Source of the DNA: a virus
Reading direction: 5' to 3' (one strand)
Length of the DNA: 15,338 bases
UHGV virus genome: UHGV-1839376
Shown here one piece after another: positions 1 to 15,338 of the stretch. How positions within the stretch are numbered: the stretch's first letter is position 1; every line of letters starts with the position of its first letter. Both the position numbers and the translations under genes were made by a program. The notes beneath the pieces are model-generated. The model was not told where the DNA came from. It saw only the letters and a list, made by a program, of their open reading frames with translations, and did not search any database.

Positions 1-64
1 ATTTCAATTCTATAGCTAAAACGTAATCAAATCATTCACATCCTTTCATATTTGACTCATGTAG

Positions 65-853
65 CCGAAACACGAAGTTAACCCACTGATGACTCTCCGC
101 CGCCTGCCGGATGAGGATCCGCAGAATCTCGCTGACCCGGTCTATCGCCGTCGCCGCATCATCCTTCAGAACATGAAGGATGAAGAGCTGGCGATTGCTC
201 AGGTCGAAGAGAAACAGGCTGTTTCGGCGGTGCTCAGCGGTAAATACACCATGACCGGGGAAGCGTTCGAGCCTGTTGAAGTCGATATGGGTCGCAGCGC
301 TGGTAACAACATTGTCCAGGCAGGTGCGGCTGCATGGTCAACCCGCGACAAAGAAACGTATGACCCGACCGATGACATTGAAGCGTACGCGCTTAATGCC
401 AGCGGTGTGATCAACATCATTGTGTTCGATCCGAAGGGCTGGGCGCTGTTCCGTTCCTTCAAGTCTGTTGAGAAGAAACTGGACACCCGTCGGGGTTCTA
501 ACTCAGAGCTGGAAACTGCCGTGAAAGACCTGGGTATGGCTGTTTCATACAAGGGTATGTATGGCGATGTGGCCATCGTGGTGTACTCCGGCCAGTACGT
601 CGAAAATGATGTCAAAAAGAACTATCTGCCGGATCTGACGATGGTTCTGGGTAATACACAGGCCCGTGGCCTCCGTACCTATGGCTGCATTCTTGATGCT
701 GATGCCCAGCGCGAAGGTATCAATGCCTCTACACGCTACCCGAAAAACTGGGTGCAGTCGGGGGATCCGGCGCGCGAATTCACCATGATTCAGTCAGCTC
801 CGCTGATGCTGCTGCCAGACCCTGACGCATTCGTCTCCGTCAAACTGGCATAA
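65..853 (+). pseudogene. E: Major capsid protein (lambda gpE-like), 5'-truncated fragment covering roughly the C-terminal 260 residues
   Basis: Translation PKHEVNPLMTLRRLPDEDPQNLADP...AREFTMIQSAPLMLLPDPDAFVSVKLA closely matches the C-terminal two thirds of lambda gpE as recalled. In-frame stops at 62-64 (TAG) and 53-55 (TGA); positions 1-61 are AT-rich and non-coding in all frames. Stop TAA 851-853. Confidence 0.85.
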
Positions 854-862
854 CTTCCCCCA

Positions 863-880
863 GTGGCCCTGTCGGGCCAC
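863..880 (+). other. Perfect 7-bp stem hairpin (GTGGCCC-TGTC-GGGCCAC) just after the capsid gene stop; possible mRNA stability or partial termination element
   Basis: Inverted repeat read directly from the sequence; no strong U-run follows, so not a canonical intrinsic terminator. Confidence 0.3.
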
Positions 881-898
881 CTTTCTGGAGTATTTCCC

Positions 899-1324
899 AT
901 GACAGAAAAAGAAAAGCTGGTCGCCCGCCTGAATGAACTTGGGACCCAGCTTAACCGCGAGGTCAGTTCCAGCGGCACCATTCAGGAACTAACGATGCGT
1001 ATTGCTGAGCTTGAAGAGGAGCTGGATGGAGACGCCATCTCGGTTGACGGTAAAAACGGCGTGCAGAATGCTTCCGACAGCACCGACAGCACCGACAGCA
1101 CCGACAGCACCGACAGCAATGTTGCTAACGTGGCAAAAGTAAAAACGGAATCGGCCACAACGGGTGACCTGGTATCAGTAGAAACGCTGGCCACCCTGCA
1201 TATTGACGCTCTGCATGCCACGCGTAACGAACCGGTATCCATCGTAGAGCCTGGTGTGATTATCCGCGTATCTGAACAGGATGCCGACGACTTGATCGCA
1301 AAGGGGCTGGCTTTCGAAGTCTGA
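899..1324 (+). CDS. FI: Head assembly / DNA packaging accessory protein (lambda gpFI-like)
   Basis: N-terminus MTEKEKLVARLNELGTQLNREV and C-terminus LHIDALHATRNEPV resemble lambda FI as recalled. GGAG 9 nt upstream of ATG 899. The ORF-track start at 863 is a GTG lying inside the hairpin and is not used. Confidence 0.85.
   Translation: MTEKEKLVARLNELGTQLNREVSSSGTIQELTMRIAELEEELDGDAISVDGKNGVQNASDSTDSTDSTDSTDSNVANVAKVKTESATTGDLVSVETLATLHIDALHATRNEPVSIVEPGVIIRVSEQDADDLIAKGLAFEV
1076..1120 (+). repeat. Tandem 9-bp repeat (GACAGCACC) x4 perfect plus one degenerate copy, in-frame within FI, encoding (DST)n linker
   Basis: Directly visible: gacagcacc repeated at 1076, 1085, 1094, 1103, then gacagcaat at 1112. 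Confidence 0.9.
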
Positions 1325-1334
1325 AGGGGGCCAC

Positions 1335-1688
1335 ATGGCTGATTTCGATAATCTCTTTGACGAGGCCATGTCGCGAGCTGATAGAGCTATCCGTGGTGTG
1401 ATGGGTACAGAGGCAAAGGTGATGTCAGGCGAATTGTCAGGTGCCACCCTGGTCGGTGTATTCGATGATCCAGAAAACATCGGGTATGCCGGTGCCGGGA
1501 TTCGCGTTGAAGGTACCAGCCCGACGCTGTTTGTTAAAACCTCCACTGTCAGCCAGCTGCAGCGTATGGACACACTGGCGATTAACGGGCGGCAATTCTG
1601 GGTTGATCGTGTTGGTCCTGATGATTGTGGATCATGTCACATCTGGCTGGGTAACGGCTCTCCGCCTGCTGCTGCGCGCCGCCGTTAA
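1335..1688 (+). CDS. FII: Head-tail joining protein (lambda gpFII-like)
   Basis: MADFDNLFDEAMSRADRAIRG...FWVDRVGPDDCGSCHIWLG matches lambda FII (117 aa) as recalled. RBS AAGGGGG upstream. Confidence 0.9.
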   Translation: MADFDNLFDEAMSRADRAIRGVMGTEAKVMSGELSGATLVGVFDDPENIGYAGAGIRVEGTSPTLFVKTSTVSQLQRMDTLAINGRQFWVDRVGPDDCGSCHIWLGNGSPPAAARRR

Positions 1689-1697
1689 GGAGCGCTT

Positions 1698-2252
1698 ATG
1701 TCAATAAAAGGCCTTGAACAGGCGATAGAAAACCTTAACAGCATCAGCAAAACGGCTGTCCCGCGTGCGTCGGCGCAGGCTGTTAACCGCGTGGCAAACC
1801 GGGCCGTCAGTCGCAGCGTGGCGGTCGTATCAAAAGATACGCGCGTACCGAGAAAACTGGTAAAGCAACGCGCCAGGGTGAAGCGTGCGACGGTCAATAA
1901 ACCTCGTGCGCTTATCCGTGTAAACCGGGGCAATTTACCGGCCATTAAACTCGGTACCGCAAGCGTGCGACTTTCCCGCAGAAAACGGGACAAGAAAGGG
2001 GCCAACAGCGTTCTGCGTATAGGACCGTTCCGTTTTCCGGGCGGTTTTATCCAGCAACTTAAAAATGGCCGCTGGCATGTCATGAGGCGTACGTCAAAAC
2101 CTCGTTACCCCATTGAAGTGGTCAGCATCCCGCTGGCAGCTCCATTAACTACGGCGTTTAAAGAAGAACTGCCAAAGCTCATGGAGTCAGATATGCCCAA
2201 AGAACTCCGGGCATCCCTTACCAACCAACTCAGGTTAATTCTGACACGATGA
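1698..2252 (+). CDS. Z: Tail completion protein (lambda gpZ-like)
   Basis: MSIKGLEQAIENLNSISKTAVP...GGFIQQLKNGRWHVMRRT matches lambda Z as recalled. RBS AGGAG at 1687-1691. Confidence 0.9.
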   Translation: MSIKGLEQAIENLNSISKTAVPRASAQAVNRVANRAVSRSVAVVSKDTRVPRKLVKQRARVKRATVNKPRALIRVNRGNLPAIKLGTASVRLSRRKRDKKGANSVLRIGPFRFPGGFIQQLKNGRWHVMRRTSKPRYPIEVVSIPLAAPLTTAFKEELPKLMESDMPKELRASLTNQLRLILTR

Positions 2253-2647
2253 AACACAGCGATATTCGCAAGGTGATTATTGACGCGCTGGAGAGCGCGA
2301 TTGGTACTGACGCCATTTATTTTGACGGCAGACCTGCAGTGCTTGAAGAGGGTGATTTTCCCGCTGTTGCCGTTTACCTGACCGATGCGGAATACACCGG
2401 GGAAGAACTGGACGCCGACACTTGGCAGGCCATTCTGCATATCGAAGTCTTTCTTGAGGCTCAGGTACCTGATTCTGAGCTGGATGACTGGATGGAGACG
2501 CGAGTGTATCCGGTTCTCGCAGAGGTTCCTGGGCTTGAATCCCTTATCACCACAATGATCCAGCAGGGCTATGACTACCAGCGCGATGATGATATGGCGC
2601 TGTGGAGTTCTGCCGACCTGAAATATTCCATTACTTACGACATGTGA
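2249..2647 (+). CDS. U: Tail terminator protein (lambda gpU-like)
   Basis: [16 protein letters not shown]...[31 protein letters not shown]...[14 protein letters not shown] matches lambda U as recalled. ATGA start/stop overlap with Z. Confidence 0.9.
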
Positions 2648-2654
2648 GGACCCT

Positions 2655-3392
2655 ATGGCCACACCAAACCCGCTGACACCAACAAAAGGTGCTGGTACCA
2701 CCCTCTGGGTTTACACCGGAACCGGAGATCCATACGCCAATCCGCTTTCAGACGTTGATTGGCTGCGGCTGGCAAAGATTAAAGACCTGCAGCCTGGCGA
2801 ACTGACAGCTGAATCGGAAGATGACACCTACATTGATGATGAGAATGCTGACTGGACATCAACGATGCAGGGGCAGAAATCAGCCGGCGAAACCAACCTG
2901 ACGCTCGCGTGGATGCCGGGAGATTCCGGCCAGCAGGACCTGGTGACCTGGTTCGATGAGGGCACCGTGAGGGGATATAAAATCAAATACCCAAATGGTG
3001 TCGTCGATGTGTTTAAGGGCTGGGTGAGCAGCCTCGGTAAAACCATCACTTCCAAAGAGGTCATGACCCGCACGGCCAAAATCACCAACAACGGCAAACC
3101 ATCGCTGGCAGAAGACAGCGGTACCGCGCCGATTGCAGTCACGGGGATCAGCCTGGATAAATCCACTGCGGCTGTGGCGATTGCGGCCACAACGCAACTG
3201 GTGGTGTCTGTCCTGCCAGCAAGTGCGTCAGATAAATCCTTCCGCGTAGCCAGCTCTGATCCTTCAAAAGCAACGGTCACAGTCAACGGCAATACCCTGA
3301 CCGTCACCGGGGTAGCTGCGGGCACCGTCGAAATCATCGTCATGAGCAATGACGGTAACTTTGTGGCGATCTGCAAAGTCACTGTTTCCTGA
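2655..3392 (+). CDS. V: Major tail tube protein (lambda gpV-like) with C-terminal Ig-like (Big_2-type) domain
   Basis: [45 protein letters not shown] matches lambda V as recalled; C-terminal segment has Ig-like character. Confidence 0.9.
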
Positions 3393-3396
3393 TAGC

Positions 3397-3412
3397 CGGG
3401 GCGTGAGCCCCG
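3397..3412 (+). other. GC-rich hairpin (CGGGGC-GTGA-GCCCCG, GNRA-type loop) after the major tail gene
   Basis: Perfect 6-bp inverted repeat read from the sequence; only 2 T follow, so at most a weak terminator or stability element. Confidence 0.3.
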
Positions 3413-3430
3413 TTCCCACCTGGAGTAAAT

Positions 3431-3853
3431 ATGTTTCTAAAGAGCGAACTGCTTGAAAGCAACGGCAGCAGCGTCACATTGTTCCAGCTTTCGGCGCTGC
3501 AGCGTATTGAATACCTCGAATACCTGAAGCAGCTGGAGGCAGTTGAAGCAGGCGATTTTCAGGCAGCCATCACCCTCACCGTAAAAAGTGGGGCGTTCCT
3601 CGTGGCGATGTCGCTATGGCGCGGCCACGAACTGAAAGGCTCCCAGGGAGAAAATGCGGCGGCGGAAGTGGCAAAGATTCAGGATGAGGTCATGCAGTCA
3701 TGGCCAACCGAACTTGTTGCCGAAGCGGAATATAAGGTGAAACTCCTGTCCGGGATGATTGCGCCGGTAACTGATGACCAGGCAGCGTCCGGCGAAGAAG
3801 GTAATGAACCCGCTGAACCCGCTACTGCGGAAAAGTCCTCGCCAGTGAGCTGA
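3431..3853 (+). CDS. G: Tail assembly chaperone (lambda gpG-like)
   Basis: MFLKSELLESNGSSVTLFQLSALQRIEYL...GAFLVAMSLW matches lambda G as recalled. RBS GGAG 5 nt upstream. Confidence 0.9.
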   Translation: MFLKSELLESNGSSVTLFQLSALQRIEYLEYLKQLEAVEAGDFQAAITLTVKSGAFLVAMSLWRGHELKGSQGENAAAEVAKIQDEVMQSWPTELVAEAEYKVKLLSGMIAPVTDDQAASGEEGNEPAEPATAEKSSPVS

Positions 3854-4182
3854 ATTTTGCCATGAAACTGGCGCGTGAGTTCGGTCGCCCGGACTGGCGT
3901 GCCATGCTTGCTGGCATGTCCTCAACGGAGTATGGCGACTGGAAAATCTTCTATCAGGACAATTACTTTCATGATGTGCAGCTGGACGCTCACTTCTCCG
4001 GCTTGCTCTACACCATCTCAACCATGTTTTTTGCCGATCCGGAGTTAACCCCGGACAGTTTCAGCATTCTTAATACTGCACAGGAACCCATCGACATTGA
4101 TGAACCGGATGACAATACGCTGATGGCGAAGGCTGCAGGTATTTCAGGAGGCGTGCGCTATGGCCCAGACGGCAGTCGGTGA
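3431..4182 (+). CDS. GT: Tail assembly chaperone G-T fusion made by programmed -1 ribosomal frameshift near 3829-3835 (GGAAAAG); T portion about 3835-4182
   Basis: The -1 frame is open from 3817 and encodes ...LAREFGRPDWRAMLAGMSSTEYGDW..., lambda gpT-like as recalled. The ATG at 3862 has no RBS. The G frame stops at 3851-3853. The only shifty motif in the overlap is A-AAG at 3832-3835. Confidence 0.75.
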
Positions 4183-6676
4183 TCTGGTCGTTAACCTTGA
4201 CGTTAACTCGTCGAAATTCAGCGAGCAGCTTAACTACGTCAAAAAAGAATTAAAACAGACCGGCAATGCGGCAAACGACGAAGCGTTACGTATCCAGCAG
4301 TCCTTCATCCGCCAGGAGAACGCCGCGCGTAAGGCCGGTATTTCAGTGGGTCAGTATAACGCCGCAATGCGTATGCTCCCGGCGCAGTTTACCGATGTGG
4401 CCACGCAGCTGGCAGGTGGGCAGAACCCCTGGCTGATTCTGCTTCAGCAGGGTGGTCAGGTTAAGGACTCCTTTGGCGGGATCATCCCGACATTCCGGGC
4501 GCTGATTGGGACGGTTTCCCCGTTGATGGTCGGCATTGGTGCATTGTCCGTTGCAACGGGCGCGTTGTTCTATGCCTGGTACCAGGGCTCTTCCACTCTG
4601 TCTGATTTCAACAAAACGCTGGTACTGTCGGGCAACACAGCCGGACTGACAGCTGACCGCATTCTGGCGCTGGCGCGGAACGGACAGGCAGCGGGGCTGA
4701 CCTTCAACCAGACCAGTGAAGCGCTGACCGAGCTTATCAACGCGGGGGTGCGTGCTGGCTCGCGCTTTGATGACATGAGCCAGGCGGTGTCGCGGTTTAC
4801 CGATGCCTCCGGCGTGCCGGTGGAGAAAGTCGCAGCAGCCTACGGCAAGCTCGCAACGGACCCGACATCGGGCCTGATCGCGATGGCCCAGCAGTTCCAT
4901 AACGTTACCGCTGAACAGATTGCCCATGTGGCGCAGCTGCAGCGTGCCGGTGATGAGGCTGGCGCACTGCAGGCGGCTAACGAGGCTGCTACAGCCGGAT
5001 TCAACGATCAGACCAAAGCCATCCGCGACAATATGGGGACGATAGAGTCTTCAGCGGACTCCCTGAAGCGCGCCTTCAAGTCGATGTGGGATGCAGCCCT
5101 CGATATTGGCCGACCTGACACCGCGCAGGAGATGGTGGCAAAAGCCGAAGCCGCGTTCAAAAAAGCTGATGAAATCTGGAACCTGCGTAAAGGTGACCGA
5201 TATGTCAATGATGAGGCTCGCGCCCGATTCTGGAATGACCGCGAAACGGCCAGGCTTGCGCTGGATATGGCGCAGCAGCAGGCGGGAATTGCCAGGGCGA
5301 ACGAAGAGAATGCATCGCGCGAAGCGGCTGCGGAATCGGATCGCCAGAAGTATGCTGCGCAGGCACAGGCAAACTATGCCAAAACGCAGACGGCACTGGA
5401 GAAATACACGGCCAGGCAGAGCGAGCTCAACAAGGCGCTGAAAGAGGGGCGGATCCTCCAGGCTGACTACAACATCAACCTGGCTGCCGCGAAAAAAGAG
5501 TACGAAGACACCCTTAAAAAGCCGAAGAAAACACCTGCAGTCAGGACTCCTGCCGGTACCCGTGCAACCGATGCGGCCAGCGCCCAGACGATGGAGCTGG
5601 AAGCACAGCTGCGCACCCTGCAGGAGCATAAGGGGATAAATGACACCATCAGCCAGCAGCGTCAGGAGCTGTGGCGTAAGCAGTCCCGTTTTACGGTTCT
5701 GGAAGAGGCCGCGAAGACCCGGACGCTTTCTGCCGAGGAAAAATCCCTGCTGGCCAGTAAAAGCGAGGTGCTTTCCCGTGCGGAGCTGAACGCGAAGCTC
5801 GGCGATCAGATAGTGGCGCAGGAGCGGCTTAATCGCCTGCAGGATACGTCCCAAAAATACGTCACGCAGATCGGCGAGAAAACCCGAGCCCTGGCGGAAA
5901 GTGCTGGTATGAGCAGTCGTGCAGCACAACGCCGCAACGAGGAGGCCCAGCTTCTTCAGGGGTGGAAAAATGGTGGAGGTTCCGAAAACGATGCCGGTTA
6001 TCAGAATGAGCTGCAGGGGCTGCATGCGTATTACGCCGAGCAGGATAAGCTTCGGGGTGACTGGCAATCCGGAGCCAAATCCGCATGGGCAGATTATGTT
6101 GATTCTGCTTCTGATGCTTATGGCCAGATGAAGTCGTTTGCCAGCAGTACGTTTGATGGCATTGGGCAAAATATGGCTGACATGCTGACGCGCGGAAAGG
6201 CTGACTGGGCTGACTTCACCCGCTCCACGCTCTCCATGCTGACACAGATCCTGCTGAAACAGGCGATGGTAGGCCTGGTGGATTCAGCATCAACCGCGCT
6301 GGGATTTGCAGGTGGCGGTTATACCGGTTCAGGCGGGAAATATGAGCCAGCAGGTGTCGTTCACCGTGGTGAGTTTGTTTTCACCAAAGAGGCTACCAGC
6401 AGGATCGGCGTCGGCAATCTTTACCGGATGATGAAAGGCTATGCAACGGGAGGGTATGTCGGGGGCGGTGGTACAGGCCCGGCTGCAGCACCTTTCGGTG
6501 TCAGTGTGTATGCCCCGGTGACGGTCGAGAATGCTTCCGGTAACGCACAGCAGCAAAACGACGGAGACAGGCTGGGTAAGGCGTATCAGCAGGTGATTAA
6601 CAAATCTGTCAATGATGGTATCGCCAGGGCAATCCAGCCCGGTGGGCTTATCTGGAATGCGACCAATCGCAGGTAA
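4160..6676 (+). CDS. H: Tail tape measure protein (lambda gpH-like)
   Basis: 838 aa; long blocks such as GISVGQYNAAMRMLPAQFTDVATQLAGGQNPWLILLQQGGQVKDSFGG and GGKYEPAGVVHRGEFVFTKEATSRIGVGNLYRMMKGYATGGYVG match lambda H as recalled. AGGAGG RBS; start overlaps the T stop. Confidence 0.92.
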   Translation: MAQTAVGDLVVNLDVNSSKFSEQLNYVKKELKQTGNAANDEALRIQQSFIRQENAARKAGISVGQYNAAMRMLPAQFTDVATQLAGGQNPWLILLQQGGQVKDSFGGIIPTFRALIGTVSPLMVGIGALSVATGALFYAWYQGSSTLSDFNKTLVLSGNTAGLTADRILALARNGQAAGLTFNQTSEALTELINAGVRAGSRFDDMSQAVSRFTDASGVPVEKVAAAYGKLATDPTSGLIAMAQQFHNVTAEQIAHVAQLQRAGDEAGALQAANEAATAGFNDQTKAIRDNMGTIESSADSLKRAFKSMWDAALDIGRPDTAQEMVAKAEAAFKKADEIWNLRKGDRYVNDEARARFWNDRETARLALDMAQQQAGIARANEENASREAAAESDRQKYAAQAQANYAKTQTALEKYTARQSELNKALKEGRILQADYNINLAAAKKEYEDTLKKPKKTPAVRTPAGTRATDAASAQTMELEAQLRTLQEHKGINDTISQQRQELWRKQSRFTVLEEAAKTRTLSAEEKSLLASKSEVLSRAELNAKLGDQIVAQERLNRLQDTSQKYVTQIGEKTRALAESAGMSSRAAQRRNEEAQLLQGWKNGGGSENDAGYQNELQGLHAYYAEQDKLRGDWQSGAKSAWADYVDSASDAYGQMKSFASSTFDGIGQNMADMLTRGKADWADFTRSTLSMLTQILLKQAMVGLVDSASTALGFAGGGYTGSGGKYEPAGVVHRGEFVFTKEATSRIGVGNLYRMMKGYATGGYVGGGGTGPAAAPFGVSVYAPVTVENASGNAQQQNDGDRLGKAYQQVINKSVNDGIARAIQPGGLIWNATNRR

Positions 6677-6681
6677 CAGTT

Positions 6682-7029
6682 ATGACGATAGAAACATTCC
6701 CCTGGGGCATTAAGGTTTCCAGCCAGCCCACCGAGGGAAGTAAAGACATAGTCAGGAAAGTCCAGTTCGGCGACGGGTACGCACAGGTGAGCGGCTCCGG
6801 CCTGAATGATGAGATTCGCACCTATGAATATTCCTTTTCAGGAGATCCGACTACAGCGAATGAAATCCATGCCTTCCTTCGTCGGCATAAAGTGAAGTCA
6901 TTTATTTTCACTCCGCCTTTCGGCGATACCGCGCTGTGGCGTGTAGAGGCTGACACGCTCAAAAAGGTGGTTAAAAACGTAAAAGTGATAACCGTAACCG
7001 CAACGTTTGAACAGGCATTTACACCATGA
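6682..7029 (+). CDS. M: Minor tail protein (lambda gpM-like)
   Basis: Size, position after H and the VRKVQFGDGY motif match lambda M (VRKVRFGDGY as recalled). Confidence 0.85.
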   Translation: MTIETFPWGIKVSSQPTEGSKDIVRKVQFGDGYAQVSGSGLNDEIRTYEYSFSGDPTTANEIHAFLRRHKVKSFIFTPPFGDTALWRVEADTLKKVVKNVKVITVTATFEQAFTP

Positions 7030-7781
7030 GTCTTAATGCTGATTATCAAAAACTTGAGCCGGGCAATGAAGTCCGGCTTTTTTCTGTCGATGGTACAGCG
7101 TTCGGTATGTCAGATGTGCTCCGCTTCCACGCACACAATATCGCGCACACCCCGGAAGAGATTGAAGCCGCAGGCGGCGACGAGAATAAACTTCCGGCGA
7201 AGTCCATCTGGTGGCAGGGGGAGGAGTATAAAGCCTGGCCGTGTCAGGTTGAGGGTATTGAAGCGACCACGGATGGTACCAGCCCACAGCCAAAACTGAG
7301 GGTGGCGAACCTGGACAGCTCGATCTCAGCGCTCTGTCTGGCGTATGACGATCTGCTGCAGGCGAAAGTGAGTATCCACGACACGCTGGCACAGTATCTG
7401 GACGCCAGAAATTTTCCGCAGGGCAATCCCACTGCAGACCCGTCACAGGAAAAGCTGAAGGTCTTTTATATCGATGCCAGAAGCACCGAGACGGATGAAG
7501 TTGTCGAATTTACGCTTTCCAGTCCGATGGATTTACAGGGCCAGATGATTCCGACGCGTCAGCTGCATTCGTTATGCAGCTGGTGCATCCGGAACAAGTA
7601 CCGGACCGGCGACGGCTGCGACTATGCCGGAACGCGCTATTTCGACAAAAACAATAATCCGGTTGACGATCCCTCGCTGGATGTCTGCAACGGCACGCTG
7701 ACGGCCTGCAAGCTCCGGCACGGAGACAGCAACGAACTGCCGTTCGGCGGTTTCCCGGGTACATCTCTTATCAGGAGCTGA
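7026..7781 (+). CDS. L: Minor tail protein (lambda gpL-like) with C-terminal cysteine cluster
   Basis: C-terminal CSWCIRNKYRTGDGCDYAG...CNGTLTACKLRHGDSNELPFGGFPG resembles lambda L as recalled. ATGA overlap with M. Confidence 0.88.
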   Translation: MSLNADYQKLEPGNEVRLFSVDGTAFGMSDVLRFHAHNIAHTPEEIEAAGGDENKLPAKSIWWQGEEYKAWPCQVEGIEATTDGTSPQPKLRVANLDSSISALCLAYDDLLQAKVSIHDTLAQYLDARNFPQGNPTADPSQEKLKVFYIDARSTETDEVVEFTLSSPMDLQGQMIPTRQLHSLCSWCIRNKYRTGDGCDYAGTRYFDKNNNPVDDPSLDVCNGTLTACKLRHGDSNELPFGGFPGTSLIRS

Positions 7782-7782
7782 T

Positions 7783-8514
7783 ATGCGTCAGAAAACCATT
7801 GATGCCATCATGGCACACGCTGCAGCGGAATATCCGCGCGAGTGCTGCGGCGTGGTGGCACAGAAAAGCCGGGTTGAGCGCTATTTTCCCTGTCGTAATC
7901 TCGCAGCAGAGCCGACTGAACATTTTCACCTGTCCCCCGAAGATTACGCAGCGGCAGAAGACTGGGGGACGGTGGTAGCCATTGTTCACAGCCATCCTGA
8001 CGCGACGACACAGGCCAGCGAGCTTGATAAGGCGCAGTGTGATGCAACACTGCTGCCCTGGCATATTGTGAGCTGGCCAGAGGGGGATTTACGTACCATT
8101 CAGCCACGCGGGGAGCTCCCATTGCTGGAGCGACCGTTTGTGCTTGGCCACTTCGATTGCTGGGGTCTGGTAATGAGCTATTTCCGGCAGACCCACGGTA
8201 TCGAGCTCTACGATTACCGGGTGGATTATCCCTGGTGGGAAAACGACTACCCGGACAATTTCTATCAGGATTGCTGGTATGAATGCGGATTCAGGGAGTT
8301 TGACGGCCCGACTCAGGAAGGGGACCTCGTCATCATGCAGGTGCAGGCTGATAAGTGGAATCATGCCGGGATTTTACTGGAGGGTAACATGCTGCTGCAC
8401 CATCTTTACGGGCATCTGAGCCAGCGAGTTCCTTATGGCGGATACTGGCAGGAGCGCACGATGAAGATCGTTCGCTATAAAGATGTAATGGCAGGTGAAA
8501 CATGCAGGAAGTAA
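7783..8514 (+). CDS. K: Tail assembly protein (lambda gpK-like) with JAB/MPN (JAMM) and NlpC/P60-like regions
   Basis: JAMM motif H-S-H-x7-S-x2-D visible in AIVHSHPDATTQASELD; a Cys-containing GHFDCWGLV segment follows. Position between L and I. Confidence 0.88.
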   Translation: MRQKTIDAIMAHAAAEYPRECCGVVAQKSRVERYFPCRNLAAEPTEHFHLSPEDYAAAEDWGTVVAIVHSHPDATTQASELDKAQCDATLLPWHIVSWPEGDLRTIQPRGELPLLERPFVLGHFDCWGLVMSYFRQTHGIELYDYRVDYPWWENDYPDNFYQDCWYECGFREFDGPTQEGDLVIMQVQADKWNHAGILLEGNMLLHHLYGHLSQRVPYGGYWQERTMKIVRYKDVMAGETCRK

Positions 8515-9089
8515 TGACCCGCATTGAGCTTGGCGGCGTGCTCGGGAAATCATTCGGTAAAATTCACCACCGCCTGATTTCCCGTGTAAGCGAGGCGGGA
8601 GTGGCGCTCGCAAAGACTATTCCGGGCTTTGAGCAGTTTATGATTTCCAGCCAGCGCCGTGGGCTCACATACTCCGTATTTAAGGGTAAAAAAAACATCG
8701 GTGTGGATGACCTCGGTTTCCCGGTTACCGGCGATGTTATCCGCATTGTCCCGGTAATCATCGGGAGTAAAAAAGCCGGTTTGATTCAAACTATCCTGGG
8801 CGCAGTATTAGTGATTGCATCGATCTGGATGCCAGGTCTGAGTATAGCTGCCAGCAATATGATGTTTGCTGCTGGTGCGTCCATAACGCTGGGGGGGGTA
8901 GTTCAGATGATATCCCCTCAGGCTACAGGGCTGGCCAGCAAACAGAGCTCAGATAACCGCGCCTCATACGCGTTCGGCGGAGTCACAAATACCGCCGCAC
9001 AGGGTTACCCGGTTCCGCTCCTGTACGGCCGCCGGAGAATCGGCGGGGCAATTATTTCTGCCGGAATTTATGTCGAAGATCAGCAGTAG
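8502..9089 (+). CDS. I: Tail assembly protein (lambda gpI-like)
   Basis: Position and size; VIRIVPVIIGSKKAGL, hydrophobic Gly/Ala-rich middle and C-terminal VPLLYG motif as in lambda I. Start overlaps the K 3' end. Confidence 0.85.
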   Translation: MQEVMTRIELGGVLGKSFGKIHHRLISRVSEAGVALAKTIPGFEQFMISSQRRGLTYSVFKGKKNIGVDDLGFPVTGDVIRIVPVIIGSKKAGLIQTILGAVLVIASIWMPGLSIAASNMMFAAGASITLGGVVQMISPQATGLASKQSSDNRASYAFGGVTNTAAQGYPVPLLYGRRRIGGAIISAGIYVEDQQ

Positions 9090-9106
9090 TTAACAAACCT
9101 TTTTAC

Positions 9107-9131
9107 AAGCCACCTTCGGGTGGCTTTTTTT
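9107..9131 (+). terminator. Rho-independent terminator-like hairpin between I and J (8-bp stem AAGCCACC/GGTGGCTT, UUCG loop, 7-T run)
   Basis: Perfect inverted repeat with TTCG loop followed by TTTTTTT, read directly from the sequence. Confidence 0.55.
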
Positions 9132-9142
9132 ATGGGCGCGAT

Positions 9143-12100
9143 ATGGCTAAAACAATTACCGGACGAAAAGGCGGGAGCTCCAGTTCCCGAACTCCCACCG
9201 AACAGCCTGATGATCTGCAATCTGTAGCGAAGGCAAAGATCCTCGTTGCGCTTGGGGAAGGGGAGTTTGCTGGACAGCTCACCGGGAAGGATATCTACCT
9301 GGACGGAACGGCGCTGGAGAACGCCGACGGCTCCCAAAACTTCAGCGGCGTTACGTGGGAATTTCGTCCGGGGACTCAGGCACAAAAATATATTCAGGGT
9401 ATCCCCGGCACCGAAAATGAAATCAGCGTGGGCACCGAAGTGTCAAGCACCACCGGCTGGACACATACCTTTACCAACACGCAACTGTCAGCCGTTCGCC
9501 TGCGCCTCAAGTGGCCATCGCTTTTTAAACAGGAGGATGATGGCGATCTGGTTGGCTATTCAATTAACTACGCTATTGATCTGCAGACCGATGGCGGCAC
9601 CTGGCAGACGGTACTTAATACCAGCGTAACCGGCAAGACAACTTCCGGCTACGAACGCAGCCATCGCATTGACCTACCGCAGGCAGGCAGCACATGGACG
9701 GTGCGCCTGCGTAAGCTAACGGCGGATGCCAACAGCGCGAAAATTGGTGACACGATGACGCTGCAGAGCTATACAGAGGTCATTGACGCCAAACTGCGTT
9801 ATCCAAATACCGCGCTGCTGTACATCGAATTCGACTCAAGCCAGTTTAACGGCTCTATCCCGCAAATATCCTGCGAACCGCGAGGGCGTGTAATCCGCGT
9901 TCCGGATACGTATGACCCGGAGACCCGCACCTATAGCGGCACATGGACGGGGGCGTTTAAGTGGGCGTGGACGGATAATCCAGCCTGGATTTTTTACGAT
10001 CTGGTGGTGAGCGACCGCTTTGGGCTGGGCAATCGCCTGACGGCGGCCAATATTGATAAATGGACGCTTTACCAGGTCGCGCAATATTGCGATCAGCCGG
10101 TTCCTGATGGTAAAGGCGGTAGCGGCACTGAGCCTCGCTATACCTGCAACGTGTATGTGCAGGAGAGGAATGACGCCTATACCGTGTTACGAGATTTTGC
10201 GGCGATATTCCGGGGCATGACTTACTGGGGTGGCGATCAAATCGTTGCGCTGGCGGATATGCCCCGCGATGTGGATTACAGCTACACGCGTGCAAACGTG
10301 GTTAATGGGCGCTTTACCTATTCGGGCAGCACCACGAAAACCCGCTATACCACAGCACTGGTTTCCTGGTCCGATCCGGGTAATGCCTACGCGGATGCGA
10401 TGGAGCCTGTATTTGAGCAGGATCTCGTTGCTCGCTTTGGCACAAATCAGCTCGAAATGACAGCCATTGGTTGTACCAGACAGTCAGAAGCGAACCGAAA
10501 GGGGCGCTGGGGTATTCTCACCAACAACAAGGATCGCGTTGTTTCGTTCGATGTCGGGCTGGACGGAAACATACCGCAGCCTGGCTATATCATCGCTGTG
10601 GCAGACGAGCTGCTTTCCGGAAAGGTTATGGGCGGACGCATCAGCGCCGTTAATGGTCGCGTTATCAAACTTGACCGTGTAGCTGATGCGGCAGCAGGTG
10701 ATCGCCTTATCCTCAACCTTCCCTCCGGAGCGTCACAGAGCAGGACAATTCAGGCGGTTAACGGGGAATCGGTCACAGTCACCACTGCATACAGTGAGAC
10801 GCCGCAGGCCGAAGCTGTCTGGGTGGTTGAGTCAAACGAACTGTACGCACAGCAGTACCGTGTTGTGAGCGTCACTGATAACGATGATGGCACTTTCACC
10901 ATTACCGGTGCATGGCACGATCCGGATAAATATGCCCGAATCGATACCGGAGCCATTATTGACCAGCGGCCGGTGAGCGTGATCCCGCCGGGCAATCAGT
11001 CACCGCCAGACAACATCGTAATCAGTTCGTTTTCGGTGGTGCAGCAGAATATCAGCGTCGAAACCATGCGCGTGAGCTGGGACCAGGCGCAGAATGCTAT
11101 CGCCTATGAAGCGCAATGGCGCCGCAACGACGGGAACTGGGTTAACGTGCCGCGCAGTTCCACCACGTCATTCGACGTTCCTGGGATTTATGCCGGGCGC
11201 TATCTGGTACGTGTACGCGCCATCAATGCCGCAGAAATTTCATCCGGGTGGGGATATTCGGAAGAGAAAACGCTGACGGGTAAAGTGGGCAATCCGCCGA
11301 AACCGGTCGGCTTCATCGCTTCCGATAATGTGGTATTCGGTATCGAGCTGAGCTGGGGATTCCCGGCGAACACCGACGACACGCTGAAGACGGAAATTCA
11401 GTACAGTCTGACTGGGACGGAAGACGATGCGATGCTGCTGGCAGACGTACCCTATCCGCAGCGCAAGTATCAGCAGATGGGCCTAAAGGCTGGGCAAATT
11501 TTCTGGTACCGCGCGCAGCTGGTGGACCGCAGCGGAAACGAATCAGGGTATACAGACTTTGTGCGCGGGCAGGCCAGCATCGATGTATCCGATATCACCG
11601 ATGCAATCCTGGAGGACATGAAAGGCTCCGATACGTTCAAAGACCTGATCGAGAACGCGGTAGACAGCAATGAAAAAATTGCTGGTATGGCTGACGACAT
11701 TAAACAGGCCAACGACGAACTGGCGCAACAGGCGCAGGATATCGCCAAAAACGCCCAGGATATCGGGAAGGTTCAGACCAGCGTTACAAACCTGTCGAGC
11801 ACGGTCGGAGATGTGTCTTCTTCTCTGAGCAAGCTTGAGCAGACAGTGGCGACGGCTGATACCGCGCTGAGCCAGCGCATCGATAACATCAGCGTGTCTG
11901 TGGACGGTATGACGGGTGGTGTAAAGAACTCGGCTATCGCTATAATCCAGAACGGGCTGGCACAGGTTACTTCCCGCCGCTCTCAAACCGTGACAAACGC
12001 GGGTAACAGCGCCAGCATTGACCGTATCGATACCACCATTGCAGATACCAGCCAGGCCGTTGCTCGCGCGCTGGTGACGCTTGATGCGTCTGCCGGTGGC

Positions 12101-12688
12101 AATGTTTCCAACTCCACCGACCTCACCGAAACGCTGGCTGATTTCACTCAGGCGTCGGCCACGAAAATCAACACGCTGACTGTTACCTCCGGAGAAAATA
12201 CTGCAGCCATTACGGTAAACGCAAAGGCCGTGGCTGATGTGAATAATAATCTCAGTGCGATGTACAACATTAAAGTGGGTGTCTCCAGCAACGGGCAGTA
12301 TTACGCTGCGGGGATGGGGATCGGCGTTGAGAATACGCCGTCCGGGATGCAGTCGCAGGTTATCTTCCTGGCTGACCGCTTCGCCGTCACCACGGCAGCA
12401 GGTAACAGCGTGGCTTTGCCGTTTGTGATCCAGAACGGGCAGACATTCATCCGGGCCAGTTTCATCCAGGACGGCACTATCAGCAACGCAAAGATTGGTA
12501 ATTTTATCCAGTCGAACAATTATGTTGCTGGTTCTGCTGGCTGGAAGCTTGATAAAGGGGGGACGTTTGAGAACTACGGTTCGACTGCTGGTGAGGGAGC
12601 CATGAAACTGACAAATCAGACGATCAGCGTCAAAGATGGCAGTAATGTTCTTAGGGTGCAGGTTGGCCGATTAACGGGAGTATTCTGA
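9143..12688 (+). CDS. J: Tail tip / central fibre host-specificity protein (lambda gpJ-like), with a C-terminal region unlike lambda J
   Basis: 1181 aa; blocks such as YTEVIDAKLRYPNTALLYIEFDSSQF and KWTLYQVAQYCDQPVPDG...TEPRYTCNVY match lambda J as recalled. The C-terminal part, from a coiled-coil-like region onward, differs from lambda J. Confidence 0.92.
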   Translation: MAKTITGRKGGSSSSRTPTEQPDDLQSVAKAKILVALGEGEFAGQLTGKDIYLDGTALENADGSQNFSGVTWEFRPGTQAQKYIQGIPGTENEISVGTEVSSTTGWTHTFTNTQLSAVRLRLKWPSLFKQEDDGDLVGYSINYAIDLQTDGGTWQTVLNTSVTGKTTSGYERSHRIDLPQAGSTWTVRLRKLTADANSAKIGDTMTLQSYTEVIDAKLRYPNTALLYIEFDSSQFNGSIPQISCEPRGRVIRVPDTYDPETRTYSGTWTGAFKWAWTDNPAWIFYDLVVSDRFGLGNRLTAANIDKWTLYQVAQYCDQPVPDGKGGSGTEPRYTCNVYVQERNDAYTVLRDFAAIFRGMTYWGGDQIVALADMPRDVDYSYTRANVVNGRFTYSGSTTKTRYTTALVSWSDPGNAYADAMEPVFEQDLVARFGTNQLEMTAIGCTRQSEANRKGRWGILTNNKDRVVSFDVGLDGNIPQPGYIIAVADELLSGKVMGGRISAVNGRVIKLDRVADAAAGDRLILNLPSGASQSRTIQAVNGESVTVTTAYSETPQAEAVWVVESNELYAQQYRVVSVTDNDDGTFTITGAWHDPDKYARIDTGAIIDQRPVSVIPPGNQSPPDNIVISSFSVVQQNISVETMRVSWDQAQNAIAYEAQWRRNDGNWVNVPRSSTTSFDVPGIYAGRYLVRVRAINAAEISSGWGYSEEKTLTGKVGNPPKPVGFIASDNVVFGIELSWGFPANTDDTLKTEIQYSLTGTEDDAMLLADVPYPQRKYQQMGLKAGQIFWYRAQLVDRSGNESGYTDFVRGQASIDVSDITDAILEDMKGSDTFKDLIENAVDSNEKIAGMADDIKQANDELAQQAQDIAKNAQDIGKVQTSVTNLSSTVGDVSSSLSKLEQTVATADTALSQRIDNISVSVDGMTGGVKNSAIAIIQNGLAQVTSRRSQTVTNAGNSASIDRIDTTIADTSQAVARALVTLDASAGGNVSNSTDLTETLADFTQASATKINTLTVTSGENTAAITVNAKAVADVNNNLSAMYNIKVGVSSNGQYYAAGMGIGVENTPSGMQSQVIFLADRFAVTTAAGNSVALPFVIQNGQTFIRASFIQDGTISNAKIGNFIQSNNYVAGSAGWKLDKGGTFENYGSTAGEGAMKLTNQTISVKDGSNVLRVQVGRLTGVF

Positions 12689-12689
12689 A

Positions 12690-12992
12690 ATGGCTTATGG
12701 AATACAGACCTGGGATGCTTCAGGAAAACCCAACAACTATGGCATCAAACCCGTTTCCGTCGTTGGGCGAATACAGCTGGCTGCCGGGCAAACCTCCGGC
12801 AGCTGGTCTTTTACGGTGCCCTCAGGAATGAAAGTTGGTTTTGTTCTTTCACTTGATGAAGGAGGTAACAGCGTAGGGCGGCGCATTGTCGCGTCAGGGA
12901 GCACAATAACCGTAAGCGCTGCATCTTCTGTAGGTCTGGGTAATTATCCGGCCTCAAAGTGTGAAGTGGTCGTTTTCATGGAGAAAGCATAA
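12690..12992 (+). CDS. Hypothetical protein (100 aa), first gene of the J-distal cassette; function unknown
   Basis: ATG 2 nt after the J stop, GGGAG RBS 9 nt upstream; stop overlaps the next start (TAATG). No recognisable catalytic motif. Confidence 0.7.
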   Translation: MAYGIQTWDASGKPNNYGIKPVSVVGRIQLAAGQTSGSWSFTVPSGMKVGFVLSLDEGGNSVGRRIVASGSTITVSAASSVGLGNYPASKCEVVVFMEKA

Positions 12993-13666
12993 TGGCCGAA
13001 TTTGGCGCGATGATATTAATGGACAACGGGAACCCATTTGTAACGCCCCAGTCAACGCCTTTTTGTCTTTACGGCAAGTACACTTTCAACTCCTCTGCTA
13101 ATGGCAGTTCGCAGCAGGTTGCTCAGAATATTGCATTAAATGCTGACTACCCTGTGATGGTATTTATCAGGACCACAAATACCGCCCAGCCCACGCCAGT
13201 AATATCTTACCGGAACGGAGGAAATGTATATGTCGCGGGGGTTAATCCCTATAACCAGAGCTTCACGTTAACCGCATATATATTTGCCATATTTCCCCAG
13301 ACGTTACCGAAATGGGGGATGGCCATCTGGGATGCGGCAGGAAAGCTGGTGCTCACTAATGAGTCCCGGGTGTTGTCCGACCTACAGACAATTGGAACGC
13401 CTGGCGCAAACGGAGGGATAAATATCGATCAGACACTTAGCGGGCCATGGGCTGTTGCACCTGCACAGCTTGGCCAAAGCATCGTTGTGAATAACTCAAC
13501 CCAGCCTCCGACAATCTACACCATTAATGCTTATTCGGCGTGCAGGTTTGACGGGGCCAATACGAGGATAAACGCAGGGGGGTCCTCCACTGGCACAGGC
13601 TCTCCGGGGGGGCTAACGAAGGCTGGCATTTCCTTAACCGCGATAAATACAGCGGCCTATGACTGA
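12992..13666 (+). CDS. Hypothetical protein (224 aa), second gene of the J-distal cassette; appears to hold two copies of the domain found in the preceding protein
   Basis: Translationally coupled to the upstream ORF; GGAG RBS. Internal segment KWGMAIWDAAGK resembles the N-terminus MAYGIQTWDASGK of the preceding protein, and the underlying DNA is also similar (16 of 19 nt). Confidence 0.7.
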   Translation: MAEFGAMILMDNGNPFVTPQSTPFCLYGKYTFNSSANGSSQQVAQNIALNADYPVMVFIRTTNTAQPTPVISYRNGGNVYVAGVNPYNQSFTLTAYIFAIFPQTLPKWGMAIWDAAGKLVLTNESRVLSDLQTIGTPGANGGINIDQTLSGPWAVAPAQLGQSIVVNNSTQPPTIYTINAYSACRFDGANTRINAGGSSTGTGSPGGLTKAGISLTAINTAAYD

Positions 13667-13718
13667 TTGATCGTTTTGGGCGATCAATAACTGATAATTG
13701 ATCTATCAAATCAATTAT
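13666..13718 (+). promoter_or_regulatory. Intergenic inverted-repeat cluster: 8-bp stem hairpin (13666-13688) and perfect 9-bp inverted repeat ATAATTGAT-N7-ATCAATTAT (13694-13718); candidate operator/regulatory region upstream of the lipoprotein gene
   Basis: Repeats read directly from the sequence; TTGAT/ATCAA half-sites recur at least five times within 55 bp. No confident -35/-10 pair identified. Confidence 0.4.
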
Positions 13719-13777
13719 ACCCACCTCTTTCATGTTGGTATTGTCTAAGTTCATGAATACCTCTGGATATCATCAAA

Positions 13778-14011
13778 ATGATTAAGCTTCTTATCGGTAT
13801 GGCTTGCGCTGCCATGCTTTCAGGTTGCGCTGGTGTACTTGAGAAACAGGAACCGATTTGCAGCGGCACGGCATATATGGGTGGCCATGAGAATACCGTT
13901 ATGATTTACGCCGTTCGAAAGCAAAACAACCAGACGCAATACCGGGCCGGATATCCCTTTAACTGGCGCTGGGTAAGTGCGAACACATTCACAAGCACGA
14001 CATGTAAATAA
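13778..14011 (+). CDS. cor: Small outer-membrane lipoprotein, Cor/Llp-like (putative receptor-blocking superinfection exclusion protein)
   Basis: 77 aa; signal peptide with lipobox LSGC (MIKLLIGMACAAMLSGC); two further Cys (ICSGTAYMGGH and C-terminal TTCK) in a pattern reminiscent of T5 Llp as recalled. Lies between J and the tail fibre gene. Weak RBS. Confidence 0.6.
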   Translation: MIKLLIGMACAAMLSGCAGVLEKQEPICSGTAYMGGHENTVMIYAVRKQNNQTQYRAGYPFNWRWVSANTFTSTTCK

Positions 14012-14031
14012 CTCATGACTTTCAATGCAAA

Positions 14032-14053
14032 CCTCGCCTCGGCGGGGTTTTTT
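14032..14053 (+). terminator. Rho-independent terminator after the lipoprotein gene (stem CCTCGC/GCGGGG with one G-U pair, CTCG loop, 6-T run)
   Basis: Read directly from the sequence, 21 nt after the TAA stop at 14009-14011. Confidence 0.55.
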
Positions 14054-14069
14054 ATTGCCTGGAGAAAAT

Positions 14070-15338
14070 ATGCTTTATAACACAGGAACTATCTCTATTA
14101 ACGGAAATACCGCAACCGGATCCGGTACAAACTGGACTGCACCGGCCAGCCAGGTTCGCGCTGGCCAGACGATTATTGTCATGTCTAACCCGGTTCAGAT
14201 GTTCCAGATTTCATCCGTGAATAGCGCCACGTCAATGACGGTAACGCCTGCTGCATCACCGGCGCTGAGCGGCCAGAAGTACGGCATTCTGGTATCAGAC
14301 AATATCTCGGTTGATGGACTGGCACAGGCTATGTCGCAGCTCATCAAAGAGTACGACGAGAACATTGGCGCGTGGGAGGCGTTCGCCACCACATCAGCAA
14401 ACCAGAGCATCACCGTCACCATAAACGGCACCCCTGTTACGATCCCCGGCATCGGTAAACTGGCGCAGAAAGGGAGCAACGGTGCGCTTGCTGTTGCAGA
14501 CGGCGGGACCGGGGCAACGACTGCAGCAGCCGCTCGATCAAGCCTCGGTTTGGGAAGTAGTGCAATCCTCAATGTAGGTAATGCTGCAGGCAATGTCATC
14601 ACACGAGGAAGCGGCATATCAGCAAGCTACTCTGATGTAAACCTTGTGCTCTTTATGAAGAGCATTGGATCTGGATGGTATCGAAATTTGCTGGCCGGGA
14701 TAGGCATGTACCAATATTCAGCAGGATTTTATTCGTATACTGGTGATACGCATGCCTATATCCAGGTTGACTATGCTACCGGGAATGTCAGAGCTCTAGG
14801 GACGGGAGATAATCTGTTAGCGGACGGTATAGTAAAAATCAACACGCTATATGGAACAGTAAATACAACAAAATCCAGCGATGGCACCATTAAAGCAGCA
14901 TCACCAGTGGCCCGTATTGTGACGAGTCGTGACGTATGCCAGCGAGCTGATATAGCGGAGGATGGTTTCTCCTGGTGCGGCTGTGGAACGGCTAACCCTG
15001 AAGCAGAGGGAGTAACCCTTTCTCGCCTCGATGTTGGGATTTACATGCTAACCGGCTCGGCTGGCTTGGCGTCAGATGGATGGCAACTGCTGCCCCCAAT
15101 GGACCCTGGCGGCATGGGAGAGTTGGGAGTGGTTGAGGCAGAGCAAACCGATAGCGGCGAGCTGACAATCCGTCTTTTCAAGCGAAAATATATCCTGAGC
15201 GATGAAGGTGAGGTCATCAAAACCAAAGGTGAACCGATTGACGTCCCGGCGAACAGCTGGATCGATGTTCGTCTGGATATGCCAGTGGATAGCATCTGGA
15301 ACCCCAAAGTTTCCGGTTCTTCTCTCGAACTCCAGTGA
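14070..15338 (+). CDS. Side tail fibre protein (422 aa) with conserved N-terminal region and variable C-terminal domain
   Basis: GGAG RBS 5 nt before ATG 14070. The motif GALAVADGGTGATTAAAARSSLGLGS is typical of phage tail fibre proteins. The ORF-track start at 14025 would run through the terminator hairpin. Stop TGA at 15336-15338 coincides with the window end. Confidence 0.8.
   Translation: MLYNTGTISINGNTATGSGTNWTAPASQVRAGQTIIVMSNPVQMFQISSVNSATSMTVTPAASPALSGQKYGILVSDNISVDGLAQAMSQLIKEYDENIGAWEAFATTSANQSITVTINGTPVTIPGIGKLAQKGSNGALAVADGGTGATTAAAARSSLGLGSSAILNVGNAAGNVITRGSGISASYSDVNLVLFMKSIGSGWYRNLLAGIGMYQYSAGFYSYTGDTHAYIQVDYATGNVRALGTGDNLLADGIVKINTLYGTVNTTKSSDGTIKAASPVARIVTSRDVCQRADIAEDGFSWCGCGTANPEAEGVTLSRLDVGIYMLTGSAGLASDGWQLLPPMDPGGMGELGVVEAEQTDSGELTIRLFKRKYILSDEGEVIKTKGEPIDVPANSWIDVRLDMPVDSIWNPKVSGSSLELQ

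Follow-up and report, generated by a model that had tools for sequence, protein, structure and literature searches.

A lambdoid tail module that begins at the probable right end of a satellite inserted in a capsid gene

The DNA analysed here, a stretch of 15,338 nucleotides from virus genome UHGV-1839376 (the window), opens inside a broken major capsid gene. With high confidence, we assign its first 72 nt as the attR of an HE-PICI (helper-embedded phage-inducible chromosomal island, a phage satellite) of the group E:Phage_cap_E:80, inserted in the capsid gene of an HK225/N15-like lambdoid prophage. The tail module that follows probably belongs to a composite of helper and satellite and not to a tail-only remnant, as judged from its sequence. 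A preliminary description of the window had taken it for a defective remnant with deleted head genes. That reading is unsupported, since nt 1-62 are a site-specific satellite end and not arbitrary DNA. The left end of the window contains the following features:

1..62, plus strand: satellite right-end arm, the satellite side of attR; non-coding, 27% G+C, stops in three of three frames; matches satellites
62..64, plus strand: junction stop TAG, composed of a T from the satellite and the AG of capsid codon 79 (AAG), according to translation and the alignment to uninterrupted prophage L010
63..72, plus strand: att identity block AGCCGAAACA, common to the satellite and the capsid gene
63..853, plus strand: 3' fragment of the major capsid gene (cognate of lambda E), from the last two bases of codon 79 to codon 341 and the stop
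89..853, plus strand: ORF of 254 aa called mechanically, with the first ATG in frame within the capsid fragment as its start; reported by gene callers

Translation of positions 2-853 revealed two stops in the capsid frame, TGA at 53-55 and TAG at 62-64, just as the preliminary description had listed them, the TGA lying 9 nt upstream of the junction TAG. The remaining two frames are shut by TAG at 13-15 and TAA at 24-26, and the AT-rich nt 1-62 (27.4% G+C versus 54.7% in nt 63-853), closed in all frames as stated there, hold no capsid-like coding sequence. From nt 65 the capsid frame is open (PKHEVNP...; PKHEVNPLMTLRRLPDEDPQNL...) up to the TAA at 851-853. Residues 2-260 of the resulting 262-aa fragment match positions 77-328 of the 329 in Pfam Phage_cap_E (E 1.4e-45). 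Translation, Pfam and the alignment to L010 agree with the earlier claim that the capsid gene is interrupted; what is present is its 3' part, from codon 79 onward. Two details of that claim needed correction. Similarity had been said to begin at nt 65, whereas DNA similarity with intact relatives begins at nt 63, which corresponds to capsid nt 236. The break had been placed about 100 residues into the protein; the alignment to L010 puts it about 80 residues in (codon 79/341): of the 341 codons, the first 78 are gone entirely and codon 79 lacks its first base. The fragment is unable to yield capsid protein, and the 254-aa ORF probably does not give a functional product. Its counterpart in relatives bears the RefSeq label 'major capsid protein, missing N-terminus'. 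When nt 1-1400 were scanned for promoters and terminators, the counts did not exceed those of shuffled sequence. Between the capsid stop and FI, at 857-888, lies a G+C-rich hairpin (GTGGCCC-TGTC-GGGCCAC) followed by CTTTCT, which the consensus scan did not flag; the phi80 record has a rho-independent terminator annotated after the capsid gene.

Intact relatives of the helper locate the break precisely. When window 1-1500 was searched by megablast in 5,426 complete E. coli genomes, 34 records covered at least 80% of the query. The matches of the best 30 of these 34 begin at nt 60-63, and in all 30 the annotation gives the major capsid protein as complete. The cultured phages HK225 (the closest, at 97.7%), mEp237, N15 and phi80 likewise end their match at the junction, and isolate contigs with an intact capsid gene lose it at window nt 60-63. 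The alignment with intact relatives that had been proposed as a check thus gave a uniform result, with every relative losing the match at nt 60-63. Looking up the FI protein led to isolate contigs in which Nu1, A, W, portal, S49 protease, D and a 341-aa E are contiguous, and only uninterrupted prophages were found among the 10 places listed. The prophage L010 (GCA_013066025.1) is 99.964% identical to window 60-11324, with 4 mismatches in 11,265 nt, and L012 is 99.90% identical over the same positions. L010 carries an intact 341-codon capsid gene and a contiguous Nu1-A-W-B-C-D cluster. By this comparison it is effectively the same prophage with an unbroken capsid gene, and it serves as the empty site. 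When the two are aligned, the window is wholly divergent leftward of ...AGCCGAAACACGAAG; the uninterrupted site in L010 reads GAAGCCGAAACACGAAG, and its attB sequence is GTTATGTGAAGCCGAAACACGAAG. None of the matches listed from complete E. coli genomes showed the helper lineage of the window interrupted.

The sequence to the left of the junction is that of satellites. Blastn with window 1-120 spanned the junction in 33 E. coli genomes. Used alone, nt 1-62 matched at 100% in 32 complete E. coli genomes, with the same capsid codon next, and this arm was found at a median of 1 and a maximum of 2 places per genome. It is also a published sequence: the attR of Eco11272.11.E_Phage_cap_E_80 in supplementary file 6 of PMC10111431 contains window nt 11-62 verbatim ('tatagctaaaacgtaatcaaatcattcacatcctttcatatttgactcatgt'), and the 26-mer at nt 37-62 is present in 24 entries of the attR alignment in that file. 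Disruption by an IS was rejected as an explanation on the basis of this low copy number and of the relatives, where the arm is the end of an 11-kb integrase island and not of a transposase element. Of the sequences that the preliminary description had proposed to look for at the break, an att-like repeat is present as the 10-bp att block, while nt 1-62 are neither host DNA nor an IS end.

A further mark of this satellite class would lie just beyond the reach of the window. HE-PICIs are characterized by a doubled tgTGTATTGCantgTGTATTGCa, specific to them, located at 81 +/- 2 bp on the upstream side of the att centre and at 132 +/- 2 bp on its downstream side (PMC10111431). We found the doubled TGTATTGC motif preceding the arm in 13 of the 14 loci that have upstream sequence, and the doubled tgTGTATTGCantgTGTATTGCa motif ending 81-82 nt before the att centre in 13/13 loci with enough upstream sequence; 11 of these 13 share the whole arm and two (L028 and L029) only its last 34 nt. 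The downstream copy was seen in L003 at about +132. For the window, the upstream copy is predicted 18-39 nt before nt 1, that is, outside it. In IMG/VR, 12 contigs carry the satellite arm, none of them with the window's helper allele. L028 and L029, both from IMG/VR, have only window 29-62 in common with it and differ upstream, with the doubled TGTATTGC motif at the same distance; from this comparison, the satellite arm is modular. On the minus strand of L018 (IMGVR_UViG_2547132269_000005), at about 1910-1944, the arm and AGCCGAAACA are joined to sequence translating as PKHEFNYQQAVERLPGE. This downstream sequence is apparently another capsid allele, which suggests that one satellite type exploits several helper lineages.

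The junction itself has the structure of an attachment site. Window 63-72, AGCCGAAACA, matches agccgaagca at 9 of 10 bases, the first 7 being identical; the identity blocks listed for the site group are agccgaagca and aacccaagca, and the Sen38667 element has the same AAGCCGAA-acacga junction (PMC10111431). Relatives have a common 10-bp direct repeat at attL and attR, which reads AGCCGAAGCA, or AACCCAAGCA in some strains. The block spans capsid codons 79-82. The site was called position 80, by Pfam 35 (PMC10111431); an insertion point at codon 79/341 and a fragment start at Phage_cap_E position 77 in current Pfam agree with this name. At base 8 of the block (nt 70), the window has A, as in the helper attB (L010, AGCCGAAACA), and satellites with the window arm have G (AGCCGAAGCA). 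Since the helper's A is found at nt 70, the crossover would lie to its left, and strand exchange within the first 7 bp, AGCCGAA (63-69), is probable from the sequence. Seven base pairs is the usual overlap length for tyrosine recombinases.

The arm and the block together bear on whether the window could have arisen by simple deletion or rearrangement, the head module and the capsid 5' end being lost and nt 1-62 being whatever DNA adjoined. Such an event would leave a window without head and packaging genes and could leave a junction that is AT-rich and non-coding, both of which are observed. We nevertheless consider it very improbable, as the exact satellite arm occurs at the integrase's codon in dozens of unrelated strains and in other capsid alleles, with a 10-bp att identity block at the junction, a combination that an independent deletion would not recreate. 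A cryptic remnant of the deletion type was rejected likewise: many strains and capsid alleles have this junction at one and the same codon, flanked by one and the same arm, and it carries an att identity block. The breakpoint that had been proposed at about 58-65, as either a deletion or an insertion, is therefore best read as an insertion carrying a satellite arm and an att block and not as a deletion scar.

The relatives further reveal what lies between the two halves of an interrupted capsid gene. The attL junction was detected in 173 of 5,426 complete E. coli genomes, a frequency in line with the published carriage of HE-PICI, estimated at ~5% of E. coli genomes (PMC10111431). In 20 complete genomes attL could be paired with attR on the same strand, with attL upstream and the two 10,571-13,452 bp apart; in 20/20 of these, attL consists of a capsid 5' fragment and then the integrase. 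We read three loci in full (L002/L003, L016 and L017), those of strains WP7-S17-ESBL-04, 95-3322 and A37, which have the same layout. In WP7-S17-ESBL-04 the helper head genes (nohA/Nu1, terminase large subunit, W, portal, S49 protease and decoration protein) are followed by a 246-nt capsid fragment annotated 'missing C-terminus'. The island begins with a tyrosine integrase, an HTH (AlpA-type) regulator, DUF2971, SWIM, an Icd-like protein, primase and SSB, and continues with a second, complete capsid gene, decoration, HTH, small terminase and a minus-strand DUF2971. After it come the capsid fragment 'missing N-terminus', FI, FII and the tail genes. The satellite genes of the three loci are co-oriented with the late genes (plus strand), save the opposite-strand DUF2971. 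Just beyond attL, L003 has Nu1, A, W, portal, protease and D, of which the last three were also read in L016 and L017. Pfam searches of the island genes returned Phage_integrase with Arm-DNA-bind_3, Phage_AlpA, a D5_N/Pox_D5 primase, Phage_cap_E and Phage_Nu1. The L016 integrase is identical at 408 of 411 residues to that of 11capE (L030). The satellite capsid in L016 (10333-11373) is 40% identical to the capsid of the window's helper, and its Nu1-like small terminase (12365-12916) is 63% identical to the helper's (L010). By sequence, the satellite capsid and the Nu1-like terminase are to be seen as diverged homologues, not recent copies, of the helper genes.

Some features of these loci vary. 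Near the right end, a minus-strand DUF2971 gene is found at 13023-13781 in both L016 and L017 and at 11023-11781 in L002; the corresponding slot of the type element 11capE (L030, 9737-11453) has HEPN and DUF262 genes instead. The cargo beside attR looks like a swap-in accessory slot, possibly for defence. The helper protease of strain 95-3322 has an internal stop (L016, 1392-2708). The helper of WP7-S17-ESBL-04 is the Qin prophage region (dicA, relBE, cspB/F/I, nohA), in which an IS66-family element splits the tape-measure gene (L002, 16235-21503); an IS1 splits the satellite primase (4596-7123).

Of the two fates that had been offered for the head genes, deleted or displaced, displacement is favoured by the attL that lies upstream in 20/20 relatives, and deletion found no support. 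An excisable satellite, whose body and attL we infer from the relatives, has most likely pushed the window's head genes some 11 kb upstream. The upstream satellite body would measure about 10.6-13.5 kb and encode an integrase, AlpA, primase, SSB, E-like capsid, D-like decoration, Nu1-like terminase and variable cargo. Past it, one would meet the first 236 nt of the capsid gene and then helper D, C, B, W, A and Nu1. The predicted attL has the satellite left end ...CTAAGTGC joined to the capsid 5' part, GGGTTATGTGAAGCCGAA[G/A]CACTTAGCATGG, and the predicted attP of the satellite circle reads ...GACTCATGTAGCCGAAGCACTTAGCATGG....

Alternatively, the junction might be a relic, the right end of an HE-PICI that did insert here and of which a later deletion took most, possibly together with the head genes; a short satellite stub beside the capsid fragment would be left, and with it a tail-only remnant as in the preliminary description. 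There is only a slight chance of this in our view. No sequence is visible upstream of nt 1, many published HE-PICI helpers look truncated (PMC10111431), and the protease stop, the IS66 in the tape measure and the IS1 in the satellite primase show decay in relatives. On the other side, attL has been kept one satellite length upstream in 20/20 paired relatives, and the visible 11.3 kb of the helper is 99.96% identical to a complete unbroken prophage, with all tail genes open. Such identity to an unbroken prophage speaks for a recent insertion that has had little time for decay.

We also searched for the window's own upstream sequence. Neither the exact pattern of the window junction nor a degenerate attR pattern had a match in species-representative genomes, the exact window-specific junction had none in JGI metagenomes, and the predicted attL of the window's helper allele had no exact-pattern match in IMG/VR. 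The truncated capsid protein is called on two public contigs only (ENA metagenome), both of which end inside the arm: L014 is 100% identical and starts at window nt 15, and L015 is 99.5% identical and starts at nt 3. The same junction is thus present in three independent assemblies, namely the window, L014 and L015. In L014, nt 15-69 are exactly one 55-mer, with the A/G difference at nt 70 as the next base, and its start fits a second copy of the arm in the sample, be it another HE-PICI or an excised attP circle. A simple k-mer overlap model accounts for the L014 start only; the starts at nt 1 and nt 3 do not fit it. At window nt 1 a contig probably ends, owing to a repeat or to branching of the assembly graph. 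The starts of the window and its two sibling contigs, all inside the arm and no more than 15 nt apart, could point to an artefact of assembly or windowing, that is, a chimeric join with the true capsid gene intact. This is the least probable of the explanations considered, and barely credible given that the junction occurs in the three assemblies and in 32 closed genomes with other capsid alleles, and that the join lies exactly at the integrase identity block.

The attR reading places the window in a system with a described mechanism. HE-PICIs integrate in helper prophage late genes, co-oriented with them (PMC10111431). The type element, Eco567.11capE, has a 10-bp identity block and occupies the lambda-E-like capsid gene of a prophage of E. 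coli NRG857c, 50icd (PMC10111431), and 201 similar elements were reported at the same site, E:Phage_cap_E:80 (Tommasini, Mageeney & Williams 2023, PMC10111431). Their attP comes without replacement sequence, so that the late gene stays broken until excision (PMC10111431). After mitomycin C treatment of 11capE/50icd the composite excises and replicates, and precise excision of the satellite follows from 2 h, in 42-98% of composites (PMC10111431). Excision of 11capE regenerates the capsid gene, as observed by qPCR and deep sequencing for 11capE/50icd only (PMC10111431).

By analogy, the tyrosine integrase of the satellite would have inserted the element at capsid codons 79-82 of the window's helper. 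In the integrated state the helper would make no capsid protein, since the attP would bring no replacement sequence. Upon induction, the composite would excise and replicate, and a later precise excision of the satellite at the identity block would restore the capsid gene late. The satellite would gain passive replication and probably late transcription, at a cost borne by the helper. Against the attR reading stands a mismatch at 1 of the 10 block positions. The window composite may be non-inducible, considering that the helpers of some relatives are decaying. The visible helper genes are all open and near-identical to those of the intact prophage L010. They comprise:

within 899..15338, plus strand: helper late genes FI, FII, Z, U, V, G/T, H, M, L, K, I and J; all open; gene-for-gene match to L010 and L012, and Pfam labels
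12690-14011, plus strand: three small ORFs of 100, 224 and 77 aa between J and the tail-fibre gene; open
from 14025, plus strand: tail-fibre gene, identified by domain search, running past the window end

Domain search identified FI in addition to the tail fibre, and the three ORFs at 12690-14011 had no Pfam match. The FI packaging gene includes five perfect tandem copies of a 9-bp unit (CCGACAGCA, window 1074-1118), which encode repeated Thr-Asp-Ser. FI has 138 aa in L015 versus 141 in the window, and the copy number of the 9-bp repeat may vary.

The element type, the site, the identity block and the arm sequence were all published in 2023 (PMC10111431). The only new point here, a minor one, is an HK225/N15-like helper lineage for a known satellite group. 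The window's element shares with 11capE and the E:Phage_cap_E:80 group the target gene and codon, the block family and the lack of replacement sequence. Within that site group, its helper is set apart by an HK225/N15-type structural module, and its attR is absent from the published attR alignment (PMC10111431). It differs from 11capE in the right arm; 11capE has HEPN and DUF262 as cargo and no Nu1-like terminase, whereas satellites with the window arm, known from the relatives, carry a Nu1-like small terminase and DUF2971. The cf-PICIs are described as encoding all that is needed to make and fill their own capsids (bioRxiv 10.1101/2022.09.08.507074). By the abstract's description they resemble the satellites seen here in having their own capsid protein and relying on helper tails, and differ from them in that the gene set of the relatives here is limited to homologues of the capsid, the decoration protein and the small terminase. 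Classical Gram-negative PICIs (EcCICFT073; fis and hpt PICIs) are alike in layout to the relatives, with int, alpA, a variable zone, primase/ori and a late zone that often includes a capsid gene. They differ in sitting in chromosomal housekeeping or tRNA genes and acting on the helper in trans only; the window-type element sits inside a helper late gene, and the doubled TGTATTGC motif is reported for HE-PICIs only.

Phage phi10403S in Listeria comK and the skin element in Bacillus sigK are elements of regulated gene integrity, or active lysogeny. In these, too, a gene is split without a replacement copy and a precise, timed excision restores it; here, by contrast, the broken gene is that of another mobile element, the helper phage, and it is the satellite, not the cell, that profits from the timing. 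Gene integrity and active lysogeny elements are mentioned in the Discussion of PMC10111431.

Two more far-reaching readings are unlikely. The satellite insertion might also substitute shell and packaging-specificity proteins encoded by the satellite itself, with the helper tails read through, which would be a form of cis tail-stealing; or the window might be the first HE-PICI in an HK225/N15-type helper lineage. The former was suggested by the satellites with the window arm, which encode their own E-like capsid, D-like decoration and Nu1-like terminase and sit between the helper head genes and the FI-to-tail genes. If the latter applied, the single mismatched base of the block would confine the crossover to AGCCGAA (7 bp).

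For the biology of these prophages, a lambdoid capsid gene without its N-terminus beside about 60 nt of AT-rich DNA ending in ...TTGACTCATGT is to be read as a satellite attR and not as a dead prophage. A prophage of this kind may recover a working capsid gene upon excision of the satellite.
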